DNA from: Mobula hypostoma
Taxonomy: Eukaryota
NCBI RefSeq assembly: GCF_963921235.1
Contig: NC_086108.1
Location: forward strand, 40,860,001-40,924,000
Length of the DNA stretch: 64,000 nucleotides
Direction of reading: 5' to 3'
Part shown: positions 7,820-55,930 of the stretch, in pieces
Position numbering within the stretch: position 1 is the stretch's first letter
How the letters are laid out: the number at the start of each line of letters is the position of its first letter
Position numbers and translations under genes: made by a program
The notes under the pieces: generated by a model
Told to the model about the DNA's origin: nothing
Databases searched by the model: none
The model's input: only the letters and a program-made list of their open reading frames with translations

Positions 7820-8983
7820 ACGCATCTGCTCTCAGGATGAGGCTTTTCATTCCAGAGGTATCCTCCCTCTTCAAAGAAAGGGGGTTCTCTCCCTCCACCA
7901 TCAACGCTGCCCTCTTCCATTTCATGCACGTGTGCTCTCACACCTACCACCTGCTACCCCACCAGGGATAGGGTTCCTTCTGTCCTCACTTAGCATTCCA
8001 CTAGCCTCCGTGTCCAGCACATAATTTTCCGCAACTTCTGCTATCTCCAACGGGATCCCACCACTAAGCACATCTTTCCGTCCGTCTTATTTTCTGCTTT
8101 CCACAGGGATCTCTCCCTATGCAACTCCCTTGTCCATTCTCCCTTCCTCTCTGATATCCCTCCTGGCACTTACCTTTGTGAGCAGAACAAGTGCTACACC
8201 TACCCCTACACTTCCTCCCTCACTACCATTCAGAGCCCTAAACAGTTCTTCCAGGTGAGGTGACACTTCACCTGTGAGTCTGATGGGGTCATATACTGCA
8301 TCCAGTGCTTCCGGTGTGGCCTCCTGTATATCAGTGTGACCTGACATAGATTGGCAGACCGCTTTGCTGAGCAGCCACGCTCTGTCCACTAGAAAAAGTG
8401 GGATCTCCCAGTATCCACACATTTTAATTCCACTTCCCATTCCCATTCCCATTCCGATATGTCTATCCATGGCCTCCTCCACCATCATGGGCCAAACTCA
8501 GGTTGGAGGAACAACATCTTATATTCCGTCTGGGTATCCTCCAACCTGTTGGCATGAACATCGATTTCTCAAACTTCCAGTAATGGCCCCTCCCTTTCAT
8601 CATTCCCTATCCCTCTTTCCCTTTCTCATGCTTTCGTCTTGCTTGCCCATCGTCCCCCTTTGGTTCTCCTCCTTTCCTTTTCTTTCTTCCATGGCCTTCT
8701 GTCCTCTCCTATCAGATTCCCCCTTCTCCAGCCCTGTATCAACTTCTCAGCTCTTTATTTCACCCCTCCCTCTCCTGGTTTCTCCTACTATCCCGTGTTT
8801 CTCCCTCCCCCCCTCCCCCCACCACCTTTTAGCTCTAATGCTCATCTTTTTTTCTGGAGTCCCGCTGAAGGGTCTCGGCCCAAAACATCGACTGTTTACT
8901 CTTTTCCATAGATGATGAGTTCCTCCGGCATTTTGTGAGCGTTGCTTGGGTTTCCAGCATCTGCAGATTTTCTCTTGTTTGCG
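7820..8983 (+). mobile_element. Neptune-type Penelope-like element 3' part (thumb, Cys linker, GIY-YIG, pLTR), inverted relative to 5952-7794
   Basis: cgcatctgctctcaggatgaggc (RICSQDEA), PCEQNKCYT, VIYCIQCFRCGLLYI, GMNIDFSNF*, then a pLTR ending ccagcatctgcagattttctcttgtttgcg. Confidence 0.92.
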
Positions 8984-18205: not shown

Positions 18206-18992
18206 CATTCCCATTTCTGGGAAGTTCAACTGTTAGCAAACTCTGACAGCTTTTAATAAGCCATGTCTTATGGTGCTAACAGACTGACAATGTGGTGTTA
18301 TTGGGTGTGCTGACTTCCAGCTAACAAAGTACTTTAAAACACAGTTCATTTATATTCAGTGATACACGTTTAAGTCCAAACAACATTCTTAAAATGCATT
18401 TAAAAGTCACCAAATTACAAACCATTTCTGAAACTCAAAGTACTTCTAAATTACAAAGCACAAAGAATAAACAATTTTCAAGATACAGGTACAATTCCAT
18501 AAATTAAACAGACGTACCCTTACCAATGATGCAGACAAATGAATCATCTGCTGCAGAAACTGAAGTCAGAGGAATGGACTTTAGTTCACCCCATGTTTCT
18601 TCCATGGTACTTGATGTTCCTTACCCCATTTCTCCTAATAAGCCTGAACTTCTGTCTGCATTTATACACTTTCTCTTTCACTTGAGTGACTTCGCATGTA
18701 TATGATATTTCTTCGGATACCCTTTATACACAAATAGTTTAAAAGCATCTTGGAGACACAGATTTCAGCTAGTTATCATTAATGTTCTGAAGCTAAGTTC
18801 CTTGAGTACATAAAACTCCCAACCATAAACACATCAGTTATATTTGATATGCTAAATGATATTATCCACCTAGTCTGCAAGCTTCCTTGAACTAAAACAA
18901 CAGGAATTCTGCGGATGCTGGAAATTCAAGCAACACACATCATAGTTGCTGGTGAACGCAGCAGGCCAGGCAGCATCTGTAGGAAGAGGTGC

Positions 18993-19027
18993 AGTCGACG
19001 TTTCAGGCGAGACCCTTCGTCAGGACT
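18993..19027 (-). ncRNA. Minimal type I hammerhead ribozyme motif in the 3' pLTR
   Basis: Minus strand reads AGUC-CUGACGA-AGGgucucgCCU-GAAAC-GUC-GACU: stem I, CUGANGA box, stem II, GAAA box, minimal palindromic stem III and a GUC cleavage triplet. Confidence 0.8.
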
Positions 19028-19320
19028 AACTGAAGGAAGAGTGAGTAAGGGATTTGAAAGTTGGAGGGGGAGGGGGAGATCCAAAATGATAGGAGAAGAC
19101 AGGAGGGGGAGGGATAGAGCCAAGAGCTGGACAGGTGATAGGCAAAAGGAGATACGAGAGGATCATGGGACAGGAGGTCCGGGAAGAAAGACAAGGGGGG
19201 GGGACCCAGAGGATGGGCAAGAGGTAAATTCAGAGGGACAGAGGGAGAAAAAGGAGAGTGAGAGAAAGAATGTGTGCATAAAAATAAGTAACAGATGGGG
19301 TACGAGGGGGAGGTGGGGCC

Positions 19321-22300
19321 TTAGCGGAAGTTAGAGAAGTCGATGTTCATGCCATCAGGCTGGAGGCTACCTAGACGGAATATAAGGTGTTGTTCCTCCA
19401 ACCTGAGTGTGGCTTCATCTTTACAGTAGAGGAAGCCGTGGATAGACATGTCAGAATGGGAATGGGATGTGGAATTAAAATGTGTGGCCACTGGGAGATC
19501 CTGCTTTCTCTGGCGGACAGAGCGTAGATGTTCAGCAAAGCGGTCTCCCAGTCTGCGTCAGGTCTCGCCAATATATAAAAGGCCACATCGGGAGCACTGG
19601 ACGCAGTATATCACCCCAGTCGACTCACAGGTGAAGTGTTGCCTCACCTGGAAGGACTGTTTGGGGCCCTGAATGGTGGTAAGGGAGGAAGTGTAAGGGC
19701 ATGTGTAGCACTTGTTCCGCTTACACGGATAAGTGCCAGGAGGGAGATCAATGGGGAGGGATGGGAGGGACAAATGGACAAGGGAGTCGCGTAGGGAGCA
19801 ATCCCTGCGGAATGCAGGGGTGGGGGGGGAGGGAAAGATGTGCTTAGTGGTGGGATCCCATTGGAGGTGGCGGAAGTTACGGAGAATAATATGTTGGACC
19901 CGGAGGCTGGTGGGGTGGTAGGTGAGGACCAGGGGAACCCTATTTCTAGTGGGGTGGTGGGAGGATGGAGTGAGAGCAGATGTACGTGAAATGGGGGAGA
20001 TGCGTTTAAGAGCAGAGTTGATAGTGGAGGAAGGGAAGCCCCTTTCTTTAAAAAAGGAAGACATCTCCCTCATCCTAGAATGAAAAGCCTCATCCTGAGA
20101 GCAGATGCGGCGGAGACGGAGGAATTGCGAGAAGGGGATGGCGTTTTTGCAAGAGACGGGGTGAGAAGGGGAATAGTCCAGATAGCTGTGAGAGTCAGTA
20201 GGCTTATAGTAGACATCAGTGGATAAGCTGTCTCCAGAGACAGAGACAGAAAGATCTAGAAAGGGGAGGGAGGTGTCAGAAATGGACCAGGTAAACTTGA
20301 GGGCAGGGTGAAAGTTGGAGGCAAAGTTAATAAAGTCAACGAGTTCTGCATGCGTGCAGGAAGCAGCGCCAATACAGTCGTCGATGTAGCGAAGGAAAAG
20401 TGGGGGACAGATACCAGAATAGGCACGGAACATAGATTGTTCCACAAACTGAACAAAAAGGCAGGCATAGCTAGGACCCATACGGGTGCCCATAGCTACA
20501 CCTTTAGTTTGGAGGAAGTGGGAGGAGCCAAAGGAGAAACTATTAAAAGTAAGGACTAATTCCGCGAGACGGAGCAGAGTGGTGGTAGAGGGGAACTGAT
20601 TAGGTCTGGAATCCAAAAAGAAGCGTAGAGCTTTGAGACCTTCCTGATGGGGGATGGAAGTATATAAGGACTGGACATCCATGGTGAAAATAAAGCGGTG
20701 GGGGCCAGGGAACTTAAAATCATCGAAAAGTTTAAGAGCGTGAGAAATGTCACAAACATAGGTAGGAAGGGATTGAACAAGGGGTGATAAAACTGTGTCG
20801 AGGTATGCAGAAACGAGTTCGGTGGGGCAGGAGCAAGCTGAGACAATAGGTCGGCCAGGACAGGCAGGTTTGTGGATCTTGGGTAGGAGGTAGAAACGGA
20901 AAGTGCGGGGTGTGGGAACTATAAGGTTGGTAGCAGTGGATGGGAGATCCCCTGAGCGGATAAAGTCAGTGATGGTGTGGGAGACAATGGCCTGGTGCTC
21001 CTTAGTGGGGTCACGATCGAGGAGTAAATAAGAGGAGGTATCCGTGAGTTGTCGCTGTGCCTCGGCAAGGTAGAGGTCAGTACGCCAGACTATAACAGCA
21101 CCCCCCTTATCGGCGGGTTTAATAATAAGGTTAGGATTAGTACGGAGGGAGTGGAGAGCAGAGCGTTCCGAAGGAGTGAGGTTGGAATGGGGACAAGGTG
21201 CGGTGAAGTTGAGACGGTTGATGTCCCGTCGGCAATTAGTGATAAAGAGATCCAGAGCAGGCAGAAGACCAGAGCGGGGTGTCCATGAAGAAGAGGAGGG
21301 TTGAAGACGGGAGAAGGGGTCATCGGTGGGGGTGGCAGAGTCCTTGCCGAAGAAGTAGGCTCGGAGACGGAGATGGTGGAAGAAGAGTTCCGCATCATGG
21401 CGAACACGGAACTCGCTGAGGTGTGGGCGAAGGGAGACAAACATGAGGCCCTTACTGAAAACAGAGCGTTCTGCCTCCGACAGTTGAAGGTCAGAGGGGA
21501 TGGTAAAGACCCGGCACGGATGACAGCTGGGATCAGAGGGGGGAGGGGGGAGGCTAGGGGTGTCAGTAGAGAGGGGAGGGTTGGGGTGAGAGGAAGATGG
21601 AGCCTCTGAGGGCCCAGGAGCTGACGGTGGGATCTGAGGAAGACGGGGCTGCGGAGTGGTGGTGGGGGAAGGGGAGACGGGAGTCACAACAGCAGCACTT
21701 GAAGACCCGGCCTGGAGCTCAAGGCTGGAATCTTGAGAGCTGGGATCAGAGGGGGGAGGGGGGAGGCTGGGGGTGTCAGTGGAGAGGGGAGGGTTGGGGT
21801 GAGAGGAAGATGGAGCCTCCGAGGGCCCAGGAGCTGACGGTGGGATCTGAGGGAGACGGGATTGCAGAGTATTGGTGGGGGAAGGGGAGACGGGAGTCAC
21901 AACAGCAGCACATAAAGACCCGGCCTGGAGTTCAAGGCTGGCGTCGCAGTTGGTGATTGCGCAATCGCTGTGAAGGTGTCCATGGTCGTTGCTGGAGTCC
22001 GGGTTTTGAATATGCCCTGAGGTGTTGGAGCCGGCGAGATCAATGGCAGGGGCCGCAATCTGAAGTTCATGCCTGCTAGTTTCAGGGCCAGCAGGCTCTG
22101 GAGTCCGTAAATGTAGGACCTTGCGATCTTTGCCTAACATGACAAAGTCAAAAAAACAGCGATTGCAGGCGTGAATCCGATGGAGGATGAAATAACGGGT
22201 AGGACCATTACAGACGGCGAAAAAAGTGTCCCGAAGGTGTGGAAGGGTCTGGGATAGGGACACCAAGTACCTCCTCATGGCGGAGAGAGTCTCCTTCAGA

Positions 22301-22584
22301 GTTTGACGGGAGAAGCGGCGAGAGGCAGAGTCAATAAAATGTGAGTACCTGGGATCCTCAGAAGGTCCAAATTGAGAGGCTTGGAAACGAATCCTAAAGC
22401 CAACTGGAGTAAGTTGGCGATGGAGGCACGTTCCAAGAAAGGATATATGGCTGTGATAGCGAGTCTGAGTCAAAGTATGGTCGAAAAGTTGAAGAGCCGA
22501 AGAAATTACAGATGGGGAGCAGTGAGAGATGGTTTCACTGAACTCCCGTCGAAGAGAGGATCTAAACTTCTTCGGTGTAGGCAT
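19321..22584 (-). CDS. Penelope-like polyprotein: N-terminal domain, Pro/Ser linker, RT, Cys linker, GIY-YIG endonuclease; one premature TGA at 19558-19560
   Basis: First ATG at 22584 (MPTPKKF). Motifs IKPADKGGAV, FYLLPKIHK, GRPIVS, MDVQSLYTSIP, GVAMGTRMGPSYA, LRYIDD, PFLDL, YYKPTD, CKRNKCYTC, VIYCVQCSRCGLLYIGET. The frame continues past the TGA as RRLGDRFAEHL...LEEQHLIFRLGSLQPDGMNIDFSNFR* (TAA at 19321-19323). Confidence 0.95.
21525..21941 (-). repeat. 213-bp in-frame tandem duplication inside the Penelope ORF
   Basis: Copies at 21525-21728 and 21738-21941 encode two SLELQAGS..AAVVTPVSPSPT...DTPSLPPPPSDPS units. Confidence 0.95.
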
Positions 22585-22718
22585 CACCGGAAGACGCTTC
22601 GCAGTAGTGAATTTAAACGCAAACAACAGGAATTCTGCAGATGCTGGAAATTCAAGCAACACACATCAAAGTTGCTGGTGAACGCAGCAGGCCAGGCAGC
22701 ATCTGTAGGAAGAGGTGC

Positions 22719-22754
22719 AGTCGACGTTTCAGGCCAAGACCCTTCGTCAGGACT
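22719..22754 (-). ncRNA. Minimal type I hammerhead ribozyme motif in the 5' pLTR
   Basis: AGUC-CUGACGA-AGGgucuuggCCU-GAAAC-GUC-GACU. Differs from the 3' copy only in loop II. Confidence 0.8.
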
Positions 22755-23609
22755 AAGTGAAGGAAGAGTGAGTAAGGGATTTGAAAGTTGGAGGGGGAGG
22801 GGGAGATCCAAAATGATAGGAGAAGACAGGAGGGAGAGGGATAGAGCCAAGAGCTGGACAGGTGATAGGCAAAAGGGGATACGAGAGGATCATGGGACAG
22901 GAGGTCCGGGAAGAAAGACAAGGGGGGGGGACGCAGAGGATGGGCAAGGGGTATATTCAGAGGGACAGAGGGAGAAAAAGGAGAGTGAGAGAAAGAATGT
23001 GTGCATAAAAATAAGTAACAGATGGGGTACGAGGGGGAGGTGGGGCCTTAGCGGAAGTTAGAGAAGTCAACTAAGCAACTTAGCTTTGTTTGTATGAAAC
23101 AAGCCAAATTAAACAAATCATTGTCTTACTCTGCATTCTTAAGTGGGAATAAAGCATCTGTAGTGAGGTAGTATCTGCTTCTCACAGAATGTCTACTATA
23201 TACAGAGCTTGTTTGCAATGCTGTGTTTTTAACTTCAAGCTGATTAGTGCTTTCCATTTTCATTTTAAGAACTGAATACTGACTTCCTTCTATAACTAGA
23301 AGTTAAACAACTGCTATTGGAAGTTTACTTACAAATGTTTGATCTTACAAGTGGCAGCTATTGTGCTTAGAAAGGGAGCTTGGCGAATATGATTCAGAAA
23401 GGGAATATCCATCGGAATGGTGTAGTCTCAATATTCAGTAGACCGTGCTGCTCAGTTAATATCTTTCTGAGTAGGATACCCAGGGATCTGGTCAAATATG
23501 GAGAATTGCCATGTGCATCCAAACATGACCTACAAAGCCCTGAAAAGGACAGAAAGAACTTTGGGGCTGCTCTTTCTTAGAATATATTTAAAAGCTATTT
23601 TCCTCTGCA

Positions 23610-25225: not shown

Positions 25226-26978
25226 GTCAAAGTCATTGTGGGGCGCATTGGCATGTGTCACAGTCACTATGTACAATGAACAGTGACTGGCCATCTTCTA
25301 CCTTCTTGCCCAGCAGATTATGTTGAGGTTAAGAAAAGCTGAGAGGGGTGGGGTAACATTTTAAATTTCAGCAAAGTAAATGAGAAAATGATTACTTGCC
25401 CAATATTCATTACCAATATAATTCAATAGAGTTCAAACAACAAGCTAATTAAGAGCCAGCACTGAGAGCCAAGTAAATTCTCTGATGAATGTTTATTAAA
25501 TGTGTCATTATCTGAATTAATAAATATTGCAGCCTGATTCACAGACCAAACAGGAAGGAGTGGAATGCAAAAATAAACCGTTGTTCAAAGGAAACTTCAG
25601 GACAGGAGCCCAAATGCCTCCATTTTATTTAAGATTATAACTTGCTGTGAATATGCAATTAGGCTTTTGGTTCTATTATTAGCACTTATAGTCAGTCAGT
25701 ATTTCCATTAAAATACTTCCTGCTGTGTAAAGAACATACTGAGAACACAACTTAATCAGCCAATCAGTACTCATCTCAGCAGAGGCATCCCCAAAAATTA
25801 ATCAGACCACCAGCCTGTGGGTTTGATTCTGTATAACATTACTGATATCTGAACTGCTTGAAATTCAAGTACAGCGTGCTCCATTGAAGGAAGGTTTGAG
25901 CTTTTCCTGTTCGCTTTTGTTATACTTCTGCTTGCTTATGTTTCCCTCTGGCCAGTAACATCAATACTGAAGTACACTCATTTCATTGAGACTCACTTTT
26001 TCATTGACAAAATATAAAGATACTTTGTCTGGAATGTTGTTGCGACTTCCTTCTGGAACAATAGAAATCTAAATATAAAAGAGGGCAGTATTTGCATAAT
26101 TTTGTACTCCATTTTCCCAGGCAACCCCTACTTTCTTCCCACTACAGTTGGATCCCCACCACTTGTCTGAACAGGTAACACTGACCGCTGCTGCCCAGGA
26201 GTGAAAAGTCAAAATCGACCTCCAGCCCTATTTCTTTTGTAAGTCATCAAGTTAACATTTTTTGCTGATCTCCATTTTAGACAATATGAACATGAGTCAG
26301 TCAAGGAAGTGGTCTGTGCAGATCTCTAGGGACAGTAAAAAAATAAATGGAAAATATAACAGTGGGAAATGTTGATTATTCCTTTTCTGTGTTTTACCCC
26401 ATTAACATGTGTGTTGTACTGGAAGATTTATTCCCTGGCACTGCATCGTTGTTCTTCAAATATTTTATCGCACCTTGCAGTTTATTATAAGATATCTTGA
26501 TATACATGAAAAATGGTGAAAATAATTCCAATGTCCCCAATCCATCCTTCTTAAAATGTTTGGATTTATTCACCCATTCATTTCAGTCAAGTCCAACCCA
26601 GTTTGTTTTTTTTAAAGTATACCAATGACATGACCTAACACTCTGTTAAACTTAACAAATGCACAGCAGCAAGTGATGTTTGCTTGGGGCAATAACAAAG
26701 GGATCCCTGTACTCCCTGTGCCAGCTCCCCAGCCTGAATTATGAGAGGGTTCCTATCCTCCTCACATAGGCAAACAGAAGATTTAACCTTAATGCTGGGG
26801 TTTCTGTGTGTGGAATTACTACATCGAAGCATTTAAGGGCTCCTGGAGGTGATCCTGGTGTCAAATGGAGAAAACAAATCAACATTTAAGCCAGCACAAC
26901 AAAAGAAAATCTGGGGTGGTGATAGACAACTTCTGCCTCATTCTTACCAACTTCACACTCATCTCAGGTAGCTTAATT

Positions 26979-27297
26979 CAGTGGTCCCCAACCTCCGGGC
27001 CGCGGACCGATACATTGCAGTGAGGAATGCAGCGGTGCTGCGGTGGCCGGAACGCACCCAGCACATCTTTAAGAAAAAGCTGAAATAAACAAGCTAATCA
27101 ATTAGGTGTCGCCCGGCACATAAATGTCAGCCCAGATTAGAGCCACGACATTTACGTGCTGGGCGGCACCTAATTAATTAGCTTGTTTATTTTGGCTTTT
27201 TTCTTAAAGATGTGCTGGGTGCGTTCTGGCCACCGCTGCACCGCTGCATTCTTCACGGCAATGTATCGGTCCGCGGCCCGGAGGTTGGGGACCACTG
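26979..27297. mobile_element. Palindromic non-autonomous hAT (Charlie-like) MITE
   Basis: Termini cagtggtccccaacc...ggttggggaccactg, inverted arms of about 150 bp around an 18-nt loop, and a perfect 8-bp TSD GCTTAATT (26971-26978 and 27298-27305). Confidence 0.93.
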
Positions 27298-30200
27298 GCT
27301 TAATTCATTCATATGAATGAGATCCTCACTTGTCGGCAGATGAATTTACAACACTATTGCACATAGTATAATATCCAGAATAACAGATGGGAGTCATGTA
27401 TTAAAAGAACAGCCCAGCAGCTAAAGAAAACTGCAATCATGCAATTCAAACTTTCTCAATCAGGTTCAATAGCCTTTTGCTCGAGTTCCAGGTATCAGTG
27501 CGGTATATACAATGCAGTGCAACCCAAAATCTAGTCAACACATTACAACTTATGACCAAGCAACGTAAGCAAATATTTTTAGAAACACAGACTTCAGTTT
27601 CAAGCACGTCTTTGATTTCCATTTAACTTTAATGTTTTGTTGGCAGCGCAGCAAAGAAACATTCCATAGCTCAACCAATTAAAATTTACTGCTCATTCCC
27701 TGGTTCAACTTTACAGTTAGCTTGCAGATGTACAACAGGATTACTTCTGAACAAGACTTATCATCTCAAGCCCTCGATATAAAAGAATAGTCTGCAAGAA
27801 CCTCTATTTAATGACACTTTGGAATCCCAGTCACAGCCAGGTTCAAGTGTAATTTTCTGATTTCTCTCTTACTAACTTTGCATAGCGACATTCTTCACTT
27901 GTAATACATTTATACCCAGCTAACATTTTAGCAAATCTTTTATCTCCAGAGAGAATTCCTTGTGATTTTCTCTGGATGGAAAGAAATTCCTTGAACTGCG
28001 ACAGACTCTGAAATGATCAGAGAGACCTGCCGGAACAAGGAAGACAGAGGGCCAGTTGACGTGTCGTACAAAAGCTGAGGGTGTACCAGTGAAGACAGAG
28101 AAGCTGCGAGGAGAGCCCCAGGCATTGCACCTCCTCAGTGTTCTCGTACACAATTAAGTTCCATCCAGCCTATTCATTTTTCACTTTAAAGGCTGTTCTC
28201 TGTTGTTGCATGGAAGGTGTGCCCATGGCCATCTTGTAACACTGGAGTCACATTCCTAGCTGAGAAACTAGTCTCGCTGCAGCCCATTAAGAAATCTGTG
28301 ACTCGAAGCTTGCATAGTGCTGCTTGCTCTTCCACCACAGCTGAAAAACGATTTGAAGATTATAGCTGCTTCCTGCGTGGAGATACTGTTTCCCCCCTAA
28401 CGACCATTTCCCATCGATACCCACAGAGGCCTACCTTCTTAACCACTGTTTTAACGGTTTCTCACCACTTCCGCCTCTTGCACTCTCTGCAGATACTGCT
28501 GTGTTTGTTTTGGTGGCTGCTCATAATGATGTCCAGGTGAAGCTGCCGAAGGAGATAATATCTCAGAGGACTAGTCGGGAGAAAACTATTTTGATTCTGG
28601 CAAGTGTCATCTAAAGCAGTAACGGAAGCATTAAATAAAAAGGCAGAGCAATTCATTTTAACCAGAGGGGCAAGTAGAGTTCCAATTTATTTTTTCATGG
28701 ATGTTGGAGCACATTTACTTATAGCCTTAAGAATTTTTGCTTCTTATGAAGGCATGTTTTACCAGTTCTATCATAGTCATAAATTTGTAAAGCTCAGAAA
28801 CAGGTCCTTTGGCCCCTCACATCCGTGCAACCTTTTTAGTCCATTTCCTTTGCTGCATAAAGACCATATTCTACGCCTTACCTTTGTCACGCAGTCTATC
28901 AGATATAACAGTTTCATTCCAAAGTAAAGTGGTTTGAAATTCAGAGCACTGATATTTCAGTCTCACTTTGCTCTGGAAGTGAAGGTTGGATAGGCCTTGG
29001 CTCAGCAACTGGTTGAAGAAATTGAATAGTAGCAGAACGTAGTGAAAAAGGAGAAGCAAACACTTGCTTTGACTTCTTTACTATCCGGCCCCTGTAACCA
29101 CCCCCATTCCTTTGTCAAACTGCTAATTGCCCTCTCCTTCAACTCATGAAATGTGCTCCTTGAAGCAAATCACACTACCTGCGATGTGTGCACTCCAGAT
29201 GTTCCTCCCAGCTGCAGGAGCAAAACATTGGGCTGAAAGTAAGGATCTCAAGGTGGATCAACAAGAAAAAATAGAGATGTTCCAAAGAAGGCAGCATTCC
29301 ACAGCATCTTTTGCACACAGATCTGATGCACAGAATACATACAGTAAATATAAAAAGATGAACATTATCCACGATATACTTATTTATAAGTTTCTGTTTG
29401 TAAAAAATTTTAATCCACAGCCACTTAAGGCTGTCAAATAATATTATTATGTTAATAATATGGCAGAATATACTATTAAATATTTTGGAAATATTTTTAT
29501 GGTCTTAGAGGCAAATTAACGGTAAAGATAACAATTTCTAAATTTACGAGTGTCCTACTTTTCCATGTTTGTAAATGTGAATGCATTAGTGATGAATGTC
29601 ATATGATTTGCGGTTCAATTTGTTTTTTTTTGTTATTATAAAATATATTTGATTTGGCAATTGCTCAAATTTGGTTACACAGAATGTATGAAAATGCAAA
29701 TAACACACTGAACTGTGAATGTAGTTTTCAGAAATGGTAAAAATACTTCTATAGATTTTGTTTTAATCTTATTCATCAACATTTCAACGCATTTATAATT
29801 CATAATGGGGCTTTGTTATGCTGATTTTTTTAAAAATCAGGAACACATTGCACATCTTGTGAGTAATCTGGCATTAGTTTTCTCCTTGTCAACTCATACT
29901 GATTTAGTGACTTCTGTACAGTAATAAGATTGTGAACATAACTTTTAAAAAGAGGTCCATTTTCACCACAAAAGGCCCGTTCAGAAACCCTATCAAGGTT
30001 AAATTTCTTCTGTTTTTAAACGTATTGCTTTGTTTGAACAGTGAATGCTGATGAGTCTGTTGGTGGGAACTGACATGGAGGAGTTAATCAGGCCTGACAG
30101 GATGAGTGAGATGAATTAGTATGCTCCGGTGGTCATGTCATTTCAACATTGTACAATAATTCAGTTCCTTTTGCTTGGTTTGGTTCAGTGACTCTGAGGT

Positions 30201-38144: not shown

Positions 38145-39884
38145 TAGAGGAGAAAACTAAAGAGTGTGACCATTCAGCCCCACGAGTCTGCTCTGCCATT
38201 CCATCATGGCTGATCCCAGATCCCACTCAACTCCATAGACCTGCCTTCTTGCCATATCCTTTGATGCCCTGACTGATCAGGAAACTGTCAACTTCCGCCT
38301 TAAATATACCCATGGACTTGGCCTCCACTGCAGTCTGCAGCAGAGCCTTCCACAGATTTGCTACTCTCTGGCTAAAAAAAATTCCTCCTTAAATCTGTTC
38401 TAACACATTGCTCCTCAATTTTGAGGCTGTGCCTTCTTGTTCTGGGGACCCCCCACCACAGGAAACATCCTCTCCACATCCACCCTATCCAGTCCTTTCA
38501 ATATTCAGTAGGTTTCAATGAGATCCCCCACATTCTTCTAAATTCCAGTGATTAGATTCAAAGATTCAAGAATCAAAAAACTTTATTGTCATTCTAACCG
38601 TACATCAGCTCTGCAGGGCAGAATGAGACAGCGTTTCTCAGGAGCGGTGCAATCATAACATACTAAGTGCAACACTAAATAATAAGCATAACAATAAATA
38701 GTAAAAACACAACAGCACATGTCAGTTAAAATCAAGTTATAAGTGTCCAGTGCAAGTTAAAAGTGTCCAAAGCAGAGTCAGGTGGTGCGGCTATTTAGCA
38801 GTCTGACTGCCTGTGGGAGGAAGCTGTTTAGTAGCCTTGTGGTTTTAGTTTTGATGCTCCTGTAACGCTTGCCTGATGGCAGAAGAACAAACAGTTCATG
38901 GAGAGAGTGTGAGGGGTCTTTAATGATGTACCGTGTCTTCTGGAGGCATCGACTCTGAAAGAGGTCTTGGACAGAAGGTAGGGAGACCCCAATAACCTTC
39001 TCTGCTCCCCTAACCACCCTCTGCAAGGCTGTTTTGTCGACAGCACTGCAGCTGGAGTACCAGGTTGTGATGCAAAAGGTCAGCACATTTTCAATCACGC
39101 CTCTGTAGAAGGTAGTTAAGATGTTAGTGGGGAGTGATGCTTGTTTAAGCTTCCTCAGAAAGTACAATCTCTGCTGGGTCTGTTTCACAATCCCAGTGGT
39201 GTTCCTGGACCAGGTGAGATTGTCCGAGATCTGCACCCCAAGGAACTTGATGTTTTCCACTCTCTCCACTGTGGAGCCGCTGATGCTGAGGGGTGTGTGC
39301 TCAGGCTGAGACCGTCTGAAATCGACGATCATCTCCTTGGTTTTGGTGCAAACCAAGGCCCAAAGCAGCAAATGCTCCTCATATGTTAACCCCTTCATTC
39401 CCGGAATCATCCTCATGAACTTTCTCGGGATGCTCTCCAATGACAACACATCCTTTCTGAGATATGTGGCCCAAAACTGTTGACAATACTCCAACTGTGG
39501 CCTAACTAGTGTCTTAAAAAGGCTCAACGTTATCTTGTTTTTATATTCTATTCCCATTGAAATGAATGCCAACATTGTATTTGCCTTCTTTACCACAGAC
39601 TCAACCTGTAAATTAACCTTCTTGCAAGAGGACTCCGAAGTCCCTCTGCACCGCTGATGTTTGAACCTTCTCCCATTTAGATAATGGTCCACACTATTGT
39701 TCCTTTAACCAAAATGCATTATCACACATTTCCCAACACAGTATTCCACCTGCCACTTTTTTGCCTATTCCTCCAACTTGGCTAAATTCTGCTGCAATCA
39801 CATTACTTCCTCAGCACCACCTACCCCTCCACCTACGTTTGTATCATCTGCAAACTTTGCCACAAAGCCATCAATTCTATTATC
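38145..39884 (-). mobile_element. CR1 LINE 3' part, interrupted by a Rex1-type LINE
   Basis: KVNLQVESVVKKANTMLAFI...LVRPQLEYCQQFW...MKGLTYEEHL at 39355-39700 resumes at 38150-38550 (LEFRRMWGDLIE). Confidence 0.88.
38553..39352 (-). mobile_element. Rex1/Babar-type LINE 3' fragment (post-RT region)
   Basis: KTKEMIVDFRR...KFLGVQISDNLTW...QQRLYFLRKL...DPSHSLHELF.LLPSGKRYRSI...NSFLPQAVRLLN; 3' end caataaag...(TTGAATC)n-like tail. Confidence 0.92.
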
Positions 39885-54600: not shown

Positions 54601-55273
54601 TAGTTTTTAAAGCTAGCACAGAAGTTGTGGAAACTTAGTTTGGATGCCAGATAATTTGATTTGGAAATTTTGTTGTATTTTGTTTTGATGTGATCAATTG
54701 TGGGGAAGTTACACTGAAAGGAAACTGCAAGATTCTGGAAACTCAAGGCCATCTTATCTAGATTCCAAAAAGCCAACTGCCATTTTATTGAACTTTAAAG
54801 ATAAACCTCAACCTTGACCTGAATACTGACAATGGTCAAAGGGGGCTTAACTTTCCTGCGAAGCAGAAGTGCCCTTTTTTAACTCAGGGTTCCCCTCCAC
54901 TAAAGCTAACATGGTTCTCTACCACAGCTCTAATTCTCGTAAATCTGCTCCTCCCTCTCCTTCCAGCTAGGACAAGAGTAGAGATCCTAGGTCCTCACCT
55001 CCCCCCCAGCACCCTCCATCCAAACTTGCATACACCTGTCTGATCTATTCACCTGTCTGTTTCTGATAAGGAGAAGCTAATATATATATATTACTTTCAT
55101 CAAAGTTAGCAATCTTTTTCTAATGGAATAAAGCAATACCTTTTATAGATGCTCTTGGATCACAATGTGAATACTATTTTTTGTCTGCTTTGTGCAGTTA
55201 GCTTACATTCCAATGCAGAAAATGCTATCTTGTCTGCTGTAAACATTATCTTAGAAACTCAGTAAATATTGTT

Positions 55274-55789
55274 ATAGTCATAGTCATAGTCATACTTTAT
55301 TGATCCTGTGGGAAATTGGTCCTCGTTACAGTTGTACCACAGGTAACAAACAGCAACAAAACCATAAATAGCCAAATAGTAACATGCAAACTATGCCAGG
55401 AAATAAGTCCAGGACTAGCCCACTGGCCCAGGGTGTCCGACCCTCCAAGGGAGGAGCTGCAAAGTTTGATGGCCACAGGCAGGAACGACCCCCCATGATG
55501 CTTCGCGCTGCATCCCAGCGGAACGAGTCTCCGGCTGAATGCACTCCCGTGTCCACCCAGCACACCATGCAGTGGATGGGAGACACTGTCCAAGATGGCA
55601 TGCAACCTGGACAGCATCCTCAGGCACCACCGCCAGAGAGTCCAGCCCCATCCCCACAACATCACCGGCCCCATGAATGAGCCTGCCGATTCCGTTGGTG
55701 TCTGCCACCCTCAGCCTGCTGCCCCAGCACACAACAGCAAACATGATAGCACTGGCCACCACAGATTTGTAGAACATCCTCAGCATCAT
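55274..55789 (-). mobile_element. Rex1/Babar-type LINE 3' fragment with apparent A-to-G hypermutation
   Basis: MLRMFYKSVVASAIMFAVVCWGS...HPLH...SFLPVAIKL; 3' end gatcaataaagt followed by (ATGACT)x3. Confidence 0.88.
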
Positions 55790-55930
55790 CCAGTAGTTTT
55801 TCTTTGATGACTGAGTTACAGAGGAAAACTCTCATAAAATCCAAAACTTTGTTCCTTATATAGCAGGTGGAACATAACATAATTCTGTGCAAAGAATCAT
55901 GGAAGCTGACAAAAGAGCAGTACTGAGATA

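Follow-up and report, generated by a model that had tools for sequence, protein, structure and literature searches.

A 5′-truncated non-LTR retrotransposon copy of 522 bp, lying on the minus strand at positions 55274-55795 of the Mobula hypostoma DNA analysed here (a stretch of 64,000 nucleotides from contig NC_086108.1, referred to below as the window), bears a dense tract of A-to-G changes on its sense strand. The most probable explanation, to which we give a probability of roughly 0.85, is that an RNA hyperedited by ADAR was reverse-transcribed into the germline genome. Taken alone, the window copy would amount to a single striking example. It is best supported by evidence from beyond the window, from a Penelope-like family of the same genome in which edits are confined to hairpins, are mirrored between arms and can be compared with an unedited parent locus; such cases would make an RNA-level mechanism testable genome-wide.

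In contigs of organisms C and D, position 55270 is followed immediately by 55796, each flank being covered by over 160 letters, and the insertion is therefore 55274-55795, flanked by a 3-bp target duplication, GTT on both sides when the window is compared with this empty site (Table 1). The initial annotation had ended the element at 55789; its end has to be moved to 55795, and the edited tract within it occupies 55321-55706. The window copy carries the marks of retrotransposition, namely an empty site, a target duplication, 5′ truncation and a 3′ tail. Because contigs of both organisms A and B reach into the LINE tail, the insertion seems older than the split of these two, the overlap of 23-24 letters being shorter than the 31 letters that we require for a bridge. 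The copy is dead, having lost its stop codon and suffered a 5-nt frameshift deletion.

Table 1. Features of the edited LINE insertion, in window coordinates.
Feature	Position	Strand	Basis
Non-LTR insertion (Rex1/Babar-type): end of RT ORF, 3′ UTR and tail	55274..55795	-	empty site; family identity 85-87%
Target-site duplication GTT (+), tail side	55271..55273		sequence versus empty site
Target-site duplication GTT (+), 5′-end side	55796..55798		sequence versus empty site
(GACTAT)3 tandem tail, unedited; common to family	55274..55291	-	sequence and sampled copies
Unedited 3′ terminus with AATAAA, 0/10 A changed, P = 2e-4	55292..55320	-	sampled-copy alignment
Hypermutated tract, 49 A>G / 108 A (about 45%)	55321..55706	-	two copy-set alignments
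Family stop TAG changed to TGG by one A>G	55420..55422	-	alignment to family
Private 5-nt deletion (frameshift), in 0/29 sampled copies	55621..55622	-	sampled-copy alignment
Unedited 5′ part, 0/12 A changed, P = 0.005 at tract context rates	55707..55795	-	sampled-copy alignment

The open reading frame of the family (L020:485-1873) matches RVT_1 (E = 5e-25) and PF09004. Among the 120 homologues listed, the closest named relative of its reverse transcriptase is a stingray protein (91%), followed by teleost proteins at up to 78%; the identity of 76-78% to teleost proteins, despite a ray-like host, might reflect horizontal transfer. In Rex1/Babar LINEs, as described in PMC6274825, a conserved 3′ UTR and an oligonucleotide tail come after a non-LTR RT ORF, and the family matches this architecture with its RVT_1/PF09004 ORF, its 3′ UTR and a (GACTAT)n tail found in most of the 29 position-sampled copies. 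The name Rex1 is absent from the 120 homologues listed, and the seven longest family copies examined have no more than about 2.0 kb in common; an AP endonuclease domain, which such elements often lose through truncation, would lie further upstream. Judged by architecture, the label Rex1/Babar appears to fit. The family is large, with 10,483 genome-wide matches to a degenerate 25-letter motif, and a k-mer family search mostly retrieved the family itself. Position-sampled copies deviate by ~2.6% from their own majority (356/13,440 sites), and the copies nearest to the window copy, among the best 40 of 4723 genome candidates scored, are 85-87% identical to it.

The window copy was compared with two reference sets, the majority of the 29 best hits (chosen by likeness to it; 499 columns) and 29 copies sampled by position (30 motif loci minus one duplicate). 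Relative to the best-hit majority it shows A>G 49, G>A 9, T>C 3, C>T 2 and C>A 1, with no other changes; relative to the position-sampled majority the numbers are 49, 10, 3, 3 and 1, respectively. Both sets agree on A>G: 49/127 A are changed (~40%), next to T>C at 3/140 T and no A>T or A>C. The excess of A>G over T>C (49 versus 3) has P = 1e-11, and the background of A>G in the 29 sampled copies is 55/3517, with 0-4 per copy (P = 4e-54 against the window copy). Between 46 and 49 of the 49 A>G changes are private to the window copy; at 55508, one of the edited sites, family members vary (11/29 sampled copies have G), and sites 55532 and 55706 recur among the best hits. Ordinary family copies (L032-L061) themselves have A>G (55/3517) in excess of T>C (24/3702), or 36 versus 24 without recurrent sites, and at 55335-55343 of the window two adjacent T>C changes combine with a G>A, all private to the window copy, into a short near-palindrome in the 3′ UTR.

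On recount, the base composition that the initial annotation gave for the minus strand of 55441-55740 (G 111, A 45, T 71, C 73) proved exact, and the corresponding 300 columns of the family majority contain 82 G, 74 A, 72 T and 72 C. The annotation had recognised that a G-rich subfamily consensus, or symmetry of A>G and T>C, would speak against its reading; the majority with A 74 and G 82, and the counts of 49 and 3, are neither. It was also correct that TA is missing from 55418-55746, where the family majority has 10 TA steps and where each of the 21 sampled copies (of 29) that cover the interval has 9-12. The TA-free gap (55416 to 55747, 331 bases) is the longest of the 64-kb window. As TA reads identically on both strands, its loss removes TAA and TAG stops from all six frames, thereby giving the pile of overlapping ORFs, just as had been proposed.

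Within the tract, the fraction of A changed is 17/25 (0.68) after U, 16/24 (0.67) after A, 11/37 (0.30) after C and 5/22 (0.23) after G; when combined, 33/49 are edited after U or A versus 16/59 after C or G (P = 4e-5), so that the neighbour bias, whose absence would likewise have spoken against the annotated reading, is present. In the coding part of the tract these figures are 9/9 after U and 12/16 after A. The effect of a 3′ G is borderline (14/21 versus 35/87 for other 3′ letters, P = 0.05), and the triplets edited include UAG (3/3), AAG (3/3) and CAG (6/8). Human ADAR1 is described as favouring 5′ neighbours in the order U>A>C>G, along with a 3′ G (PMC3113232), and the 5′ order in the window copy matches this preference. 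The three codon positions were hit alike (14/33, 13/27 and 10/18), and 27/37 coding changes are non-synonymous; selection on the peptide as their cause was considered and rejected. The ancestral residues given in the initial annotation were right, the family reading TNRINKLIRKAS, HPLHNV, RHRKSFLP and AIKLYNS. The copy at 38778 that it used for comparison does end in AVRLLNS, but belongs to another family, with no nucleotide match; this is a 308-aa reading frame of a different non-LTR family (38778-39704), with a TA-free stretch of 219 bp at 39163-39382. The 5-nt deletion in the window copy possibly arose by slippage after editing: had the A run at 55617-55626 been edited beforehand, the site would have been a tandem repeat of perfect 5-bp units, one of which the deletion takes away, and a similar A run at 55321-55324 is edited in the window copy.

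Other processes can be weighed against this spectrum. In integrated viral DNA of Bigelowiella natans, TpA is converted to TpG or CpA according to strand, almost at TpA only (bioRxiv 10.64898/2026.01.13.699255). The window copy resembles that system in its local A:T>G:C hypermutation and its loss of TA in mobile DNA, with TA being the most changed context and the core of the tract having lost every TA. In Bigelowiella natans, however, the process acts on DNA, on both strands and at TpA only, while the window copy changed on one strand, with TA becoming TG 17 times and CA once and with 32/49 changes outside TA. Had GC-biased gene conversion acted once the copy was in place, T>C, A>C and T>G changes would be expected, of which 3, 0 and 0 were observed; the strand asymmetry refutes this process. 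Either of these DNA-level processes, TpA hypermutation of repeats or GC-biased conversion, therefore has a nearly negligible probability.

Another candidate is an error-prone polymerase of the Pol eta or iota type, placing G opposite template T, or a dNTP imbalance at second-strand synthesis. The motif of Pol eta is one-strand A>G after T or A. It resembles the A>G after T or A of the window copy, and a small excess of G>A on the same strand could suit purine misinsertion. This excess at non-CpG sites (6/114, with 1.2 expected; P = 0.0015) is unexplained and also counts against the ADAR reading; the edited Penelope-like arms lack it. The polymerase explanation is nonetheless highly improbable, since A>T and A>C are both 0 beside A>G 49 (P = 0.006 even with only 10% transversions among errors at A), and since both ends and the tail of the window copy were spared. 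APOBEC editing of the window copy was rejected, with G>A 10 versus A>G 49 on the sense strand.

An assembly or sequencing artefact has a very small probability as well. The interior G alleles are known from the assembly, and the contigs listed from 4 of the 24 runs include none that carries them, nor did the search of runs list any RNA data set for the locus; in run X1, the contigs listed match the flanks with 0 differences, and the interior G alleles are not seen. However, read contigs are collapsed under the thousands of family copies, so that they indicate presence and not absence, and the X1 contigs reach only 24 and 16 letters past the junctions into the element, and one X5 contig covers 23 letters of the tail, all below the 31 letters required for a bridge. 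The systematic trace error that is described is G-to-A (PMC2873906), and the pattern recurs at many loci, on different contigs, and is bounded by the ends of arms. Comparison of the flanks with other organisms gave no matching excess (window C/read T 7, window T/read C 13, among 40 of the 75 differences).

The window copy is rare. It was the sole genome-wide match to a motif with G at three TA sites, and allowing one mismatch added two ordinary copies, which carry 3 and 4 A>G. An edited motif at a second sense position again matched the window copy alone in the genome, the antisense mirror of the edited motif had 0 matches genome-wide, and a second Rex1-type family (its copy total uncounted) gave 0 edited-motif matches. 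No second copy of this kind turned up among the 10,483 family motif matches, which leaves the window copy a singleton in its family. When 663 kb of sequence were scanned generically for clusters, the only hits were the loci already selected, the window copy itself and, in an old diverged copy, a single C>T window (7951-8051). The genome scan for further A-to-G copies that the initial annotation proposed, carried out with edited motifs, yielded none in the LINE family, and at least 22 loci in the Penelope-like family.

The source and the pairing partner of the window copy were sought in the same way. The non-A>G variants of the window copy are private, and a motif with three of them, used as a mark of the source locus, matched the window copy alone. 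No inverted family copy lies within 184 kb around it (about 95 kb on one side and 88 kb on the other), the nearest family copy being on the same strand, and no antisense partner was found among the genome motif matches and in these 184-kb surroundings. Self-folding as the duplex was rejected (z -0.59 for the edited and -0.32 for an unedited copy), and a stable terminal stem-loop is absent from two unedited family copies. With neither an inverted copy in 184 kb nor a self-fold, editing did not occur on a local hairpin, and the duplex would therefore have formed elsewhere, at the source locus or in trans. A tail-to-tail inverted pair in the region C1:2405364-2406782 (L046, L191) was rejected as the source, as it shares CpG-type variants only; these two copies of the Rex1-type family lie about 385 bp apart and are unedited. 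Elsewhere in the window, 26973-27303 is a near-palindrome of 331 bp, 89% self-complementary.

The Penelope-like family served as a control. A nearly full-length element lies within the window at 18887-23068, with an ORF at 19558-22665 (minus strand, 1035 aa) that is interrupted near its end and scores 24.4 bits for RVT_1, below the cut-off. Penelope-like elements have one ORF that joins RT to a C-terminal GIY-YIG endonuclease, and their terminal repeats (pLTRs), direct or inverted, contain a hammerhead ribozyme. The ORF in the window terminates in GVIYC..YIGET, which we take to be a GIY-YIG endonuclease motif, and the family may have a hammerhead-like core; an Rfam search of the family gave no hammerhead match. 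The element contains a 456-bp direct repeat (97%), and at 21521-21941 a G-rich direct repeat of 213 bp in the ORF is surpassed in the window by just one longer stretch free of TA. Many family members have tandem and inverted arms.

The unedited Penelope-like motif matches 62,057 times genome-wide. Its sense-edited form picked out 32 loci, with 36 matches in all, and the antisense-edited form 9, giving 41 motif-selected loci. With the search motif excluded, A>G amounts to 93/854 in the 32 sense-selected arms, where T>C is 14/1621; in the 9 antisense-selected arms T>C reaches 181/453 and A>G is 0/171, and 26 unselected copies have A>G 17/1552 and T>C 44/2876. Outside the motif, 15/32 sense-selected loci are significant (P < 0.01), six fall short with 1-2 changes and 11 have none; seven of the nine antisense-selected loci carry 9-64 changes per arm, the other two being false positives. 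At least 22 of the 41 loci therefore bear clusters of the A>G type. On the edited strand of the antisense arms, the rates by 5′ neighbour are U 19/27 (0.70), A 66/102 (0.65), C 50/106 (0.47) and G 46/159 (0.29), with 3′ A and 3′ G equally favoured; in the sense arms, 5′ G (23/128) is slightly above C (19/134). Together with the A>G asymmetry and the 5′ neighbour bias of the window copy, these controls support the initial annotation's proposal that an ADAR-edited RNA was retrotransposed.

Edits in this family are confined to sequences that can form a double strand. At L085, 16/46 A are edited where the arm is pairable and 2/75 where it is not; at L094, the figures are 11/31 and 0/22. Both are inverted repeats, as are L105 and L108, and in all four a single genomic strand carries the A>G changes of the two arms; at L085 and L094 an extra sense arm is unedited. 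In the window copy, by comparison, the tract is bounded and its partner was not found. At 10 other loci (L086, L090, L095, L098, L103, L145, L147, L149, L150 and L152), mirrored arms share 46/55 edited positions on opposite genomic strands, several within one target duplication, and 9/55 are discordant. The editing thus predates the inverted copy, pointing to fold-back copying after editing. At L107, L109, L110, L112, L113 and L156, one arm is edited (up to 64/127 sites) and the neighbouring arms are not; such loci may represent 5′-truncated three-arm templates or two RNA templates. Penelope-like transcripts are described as containing several copies, with reverse transcription beginning internally (PMC11167929).

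Some edited Penelope-like copies share one background haplotype and many edits, as would be expected if edits were inherited from an edited master element, or if the window copy came from a G-rich subfamily. Yet the copies that share this haplotype (L147, L155 and L156) carry edit sets that overlap but differ, which looks like the product of separate RNA molecules. Moreover, no sister above 87% identity to the window copy was seen among the best 40 of 4723 candidates scored, and genome-wide motif scans at three places returned the window copy or ordinary copies only. Descent of the window copy from such a subfamily or master is scarcely credible.

The most informative comparison is between a Penelope-like parent and its daughter. 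The daughter, a 5.1-kb composite within an 8-bp target duplication (C80:32622014-32627144; L164:3014-8144), contains a 1.27-kb loop of which exactly one other full-length copy exists in the genome, at the unedited parent locus C36:112764648-112766576, showing that this DNA was copied from the parent. Relative to C36, 52/92 A are changed in the inverted arm of C80 and 0/441 in the loop (P = 3e-47). For the C80 event this settles which way the change went and rules out both an error of the polymerase and an imbalance of nucleotides, the insertion having copied 441 loop A with zero A>G. Upstream of the loop, C80 has an edited arm that appears to have been the pairing partner, and the parent at C36 lacks that arm; the last arm of C80 is unedited in its parent-derived part and departs from the parent only past position 7964, which suggests a template switch.

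The C80 composite raises a puzzle. Its missing upstream partner at C36 and the unedited, parent-derived part of its last arm mean that RNA pairing requires a composite locus, and a lost intermediate, pairing in trans, or rewriting of the C80 locus itself in place can each explain this. A general form of the last possibility is that an unedited insertion was later rewritten in place, through gene conversion or repair from the cDNA of an ADAR-edited transcript of the same locus. We consider this improbable, given that the 184 kb around the window copy contain no inverted partner, that no young inverted arm matching the edited stretch lies within about 5 kb of six solitary edited Penelope-like arms (L088, L092, L100, L146, L148 and L154), and that mirrored arms with the same edits on opposite strands are impossible from a local hairpin. 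A narrower version, in which the reverse transcriptase of a retroelement copied an ADAR-edited hairpin transcript and the cDNA replaced the same locus at some composite loci, is doubtful, though less remote. If true, RNA editing would recode germ-line DNA at its own source, and the C80 composite would be the test case.

Returning to ADAR editing before reverse transcription, the hairpin-confined marks of the Penelope-like copies and the pattern of the window copy together indicate that inherited DNA at times receives sequence copied from edited RNA. In the window copy, the insertion borders, the strand-specific A>G tract, the neighbour pattern and the rarity are observed; in the Penelope-like copies, the limitation of edits to pairable arms, the direction of change and the greater age of the edits relative to the inverted copy are observed. 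We infer ADAR as the enzyme from this signature, and we likewise infer the RNA duplex and its partner for the window copy, mobilisation in trans and the need for an unedited 3′ end. A transcript with the LINE 3′ end would have paired with an antisense copy over about 390 nt, and ADAR would have hyperedited the duplex, converting about 45% of A to inosine. The edited RNA would then have served as a template for target-primed reverse transcription in a germ-line cell, with the protein of an intact element supplied in trans; inosine would be read as G, and the edits would be retained on the sense strand of the new 5′-truncated copy. The spared 5′ part could be the unpaired portion of the RNA, and the 3′ end may have been spared because an intact priming signal is needed.

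In plant mitochondria, C-to-U edited transcripts are retroprocessed into the genome. There, as proposed here, reverse transcription writes edited RNA into the genome, although that process is organellar and site-specific and proceeds by gene conversion, whereas ours would be nuclear and promiscuous (A-to-I) and would make a new insertion. A-to-G hyperedited retroviral genomes are described for RAV-1 (Felder 1994) and avian leukosis virus (Hajjar and Linial 1995) (PMC8586724). As in those cases, an edited RNA would have been reverse-transcribed, with A>G landing in integrated DNA; those, however, are exogenous LTR viruses in infected cells, whereas non-LTR and Penelope-like elements in inherited DNA are concerned here, with pairing arms and a parent visible. 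Knisbacher and Levanon reported APOBEC G-to-A editing of genomic retroelements, with other clusters negligible in their screen of endogenous retroviruses in 123 genomes (PMC4866542). Both phenomena give strand-biased clusters of a single transition in single retroelement copies, arising during retrotransposition, but APOBEC acts by C-to-U on minus-strand DNA of LTR elements, while the A>G changes described here appear to be RNA-level and double-strand-dependent. A-to-I hyperediting of RNA is documented in the elephant shark (Porath 2017, PMC5625713). Transcript hyperediting shares with our cases the inverted repeat arms as substrate and the depletion of 5′ G (PMC5625713, PMC4982230); it is normally seen in RNA only, and the edits here sit in DNA. 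Counting against the ADAR reading, ADAR1 restricts L1 yet did not edit transfected human L1 RNA (PMC5224506). A review by Goodier (2016) describes a role for ADAR in suppressing retrotransposition by mutation as undetermined (PMC4982230). In an A>G-rich endogenous MMTV, the changes did not show the ADAR context (PMC12548423). In the literature searched, which included few subscription journals and no supplements, we found no report of ADAR-type genomic copies of non-LTR or Penelope-like elements.

On ADAR editing of retrotransposition-competent germ-line RNA, the review thus gives no verdict (PMC4982230), and the cell study saw no editing of L1 RNA (PMC5224506). The present reading would mean that RNA carrying many inosines can be reverse-transcribed and passed on to descendants, with a frequency of roughly 1 in 10,000 LINE family copies and of at least 22 loci per 62,057 Penelope-like motif matches. 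The simple screen used here could be applied to any animal assembly, and the copies that it finds would form a dated record of germ-line ADAR preference. The edits would also act as a molecular barcode, identifying for each arm of a complex insertion the RNA molecule and the paired region from which it came, and this barcode bears on how the inverted arms of Penelope-like elements are formed.
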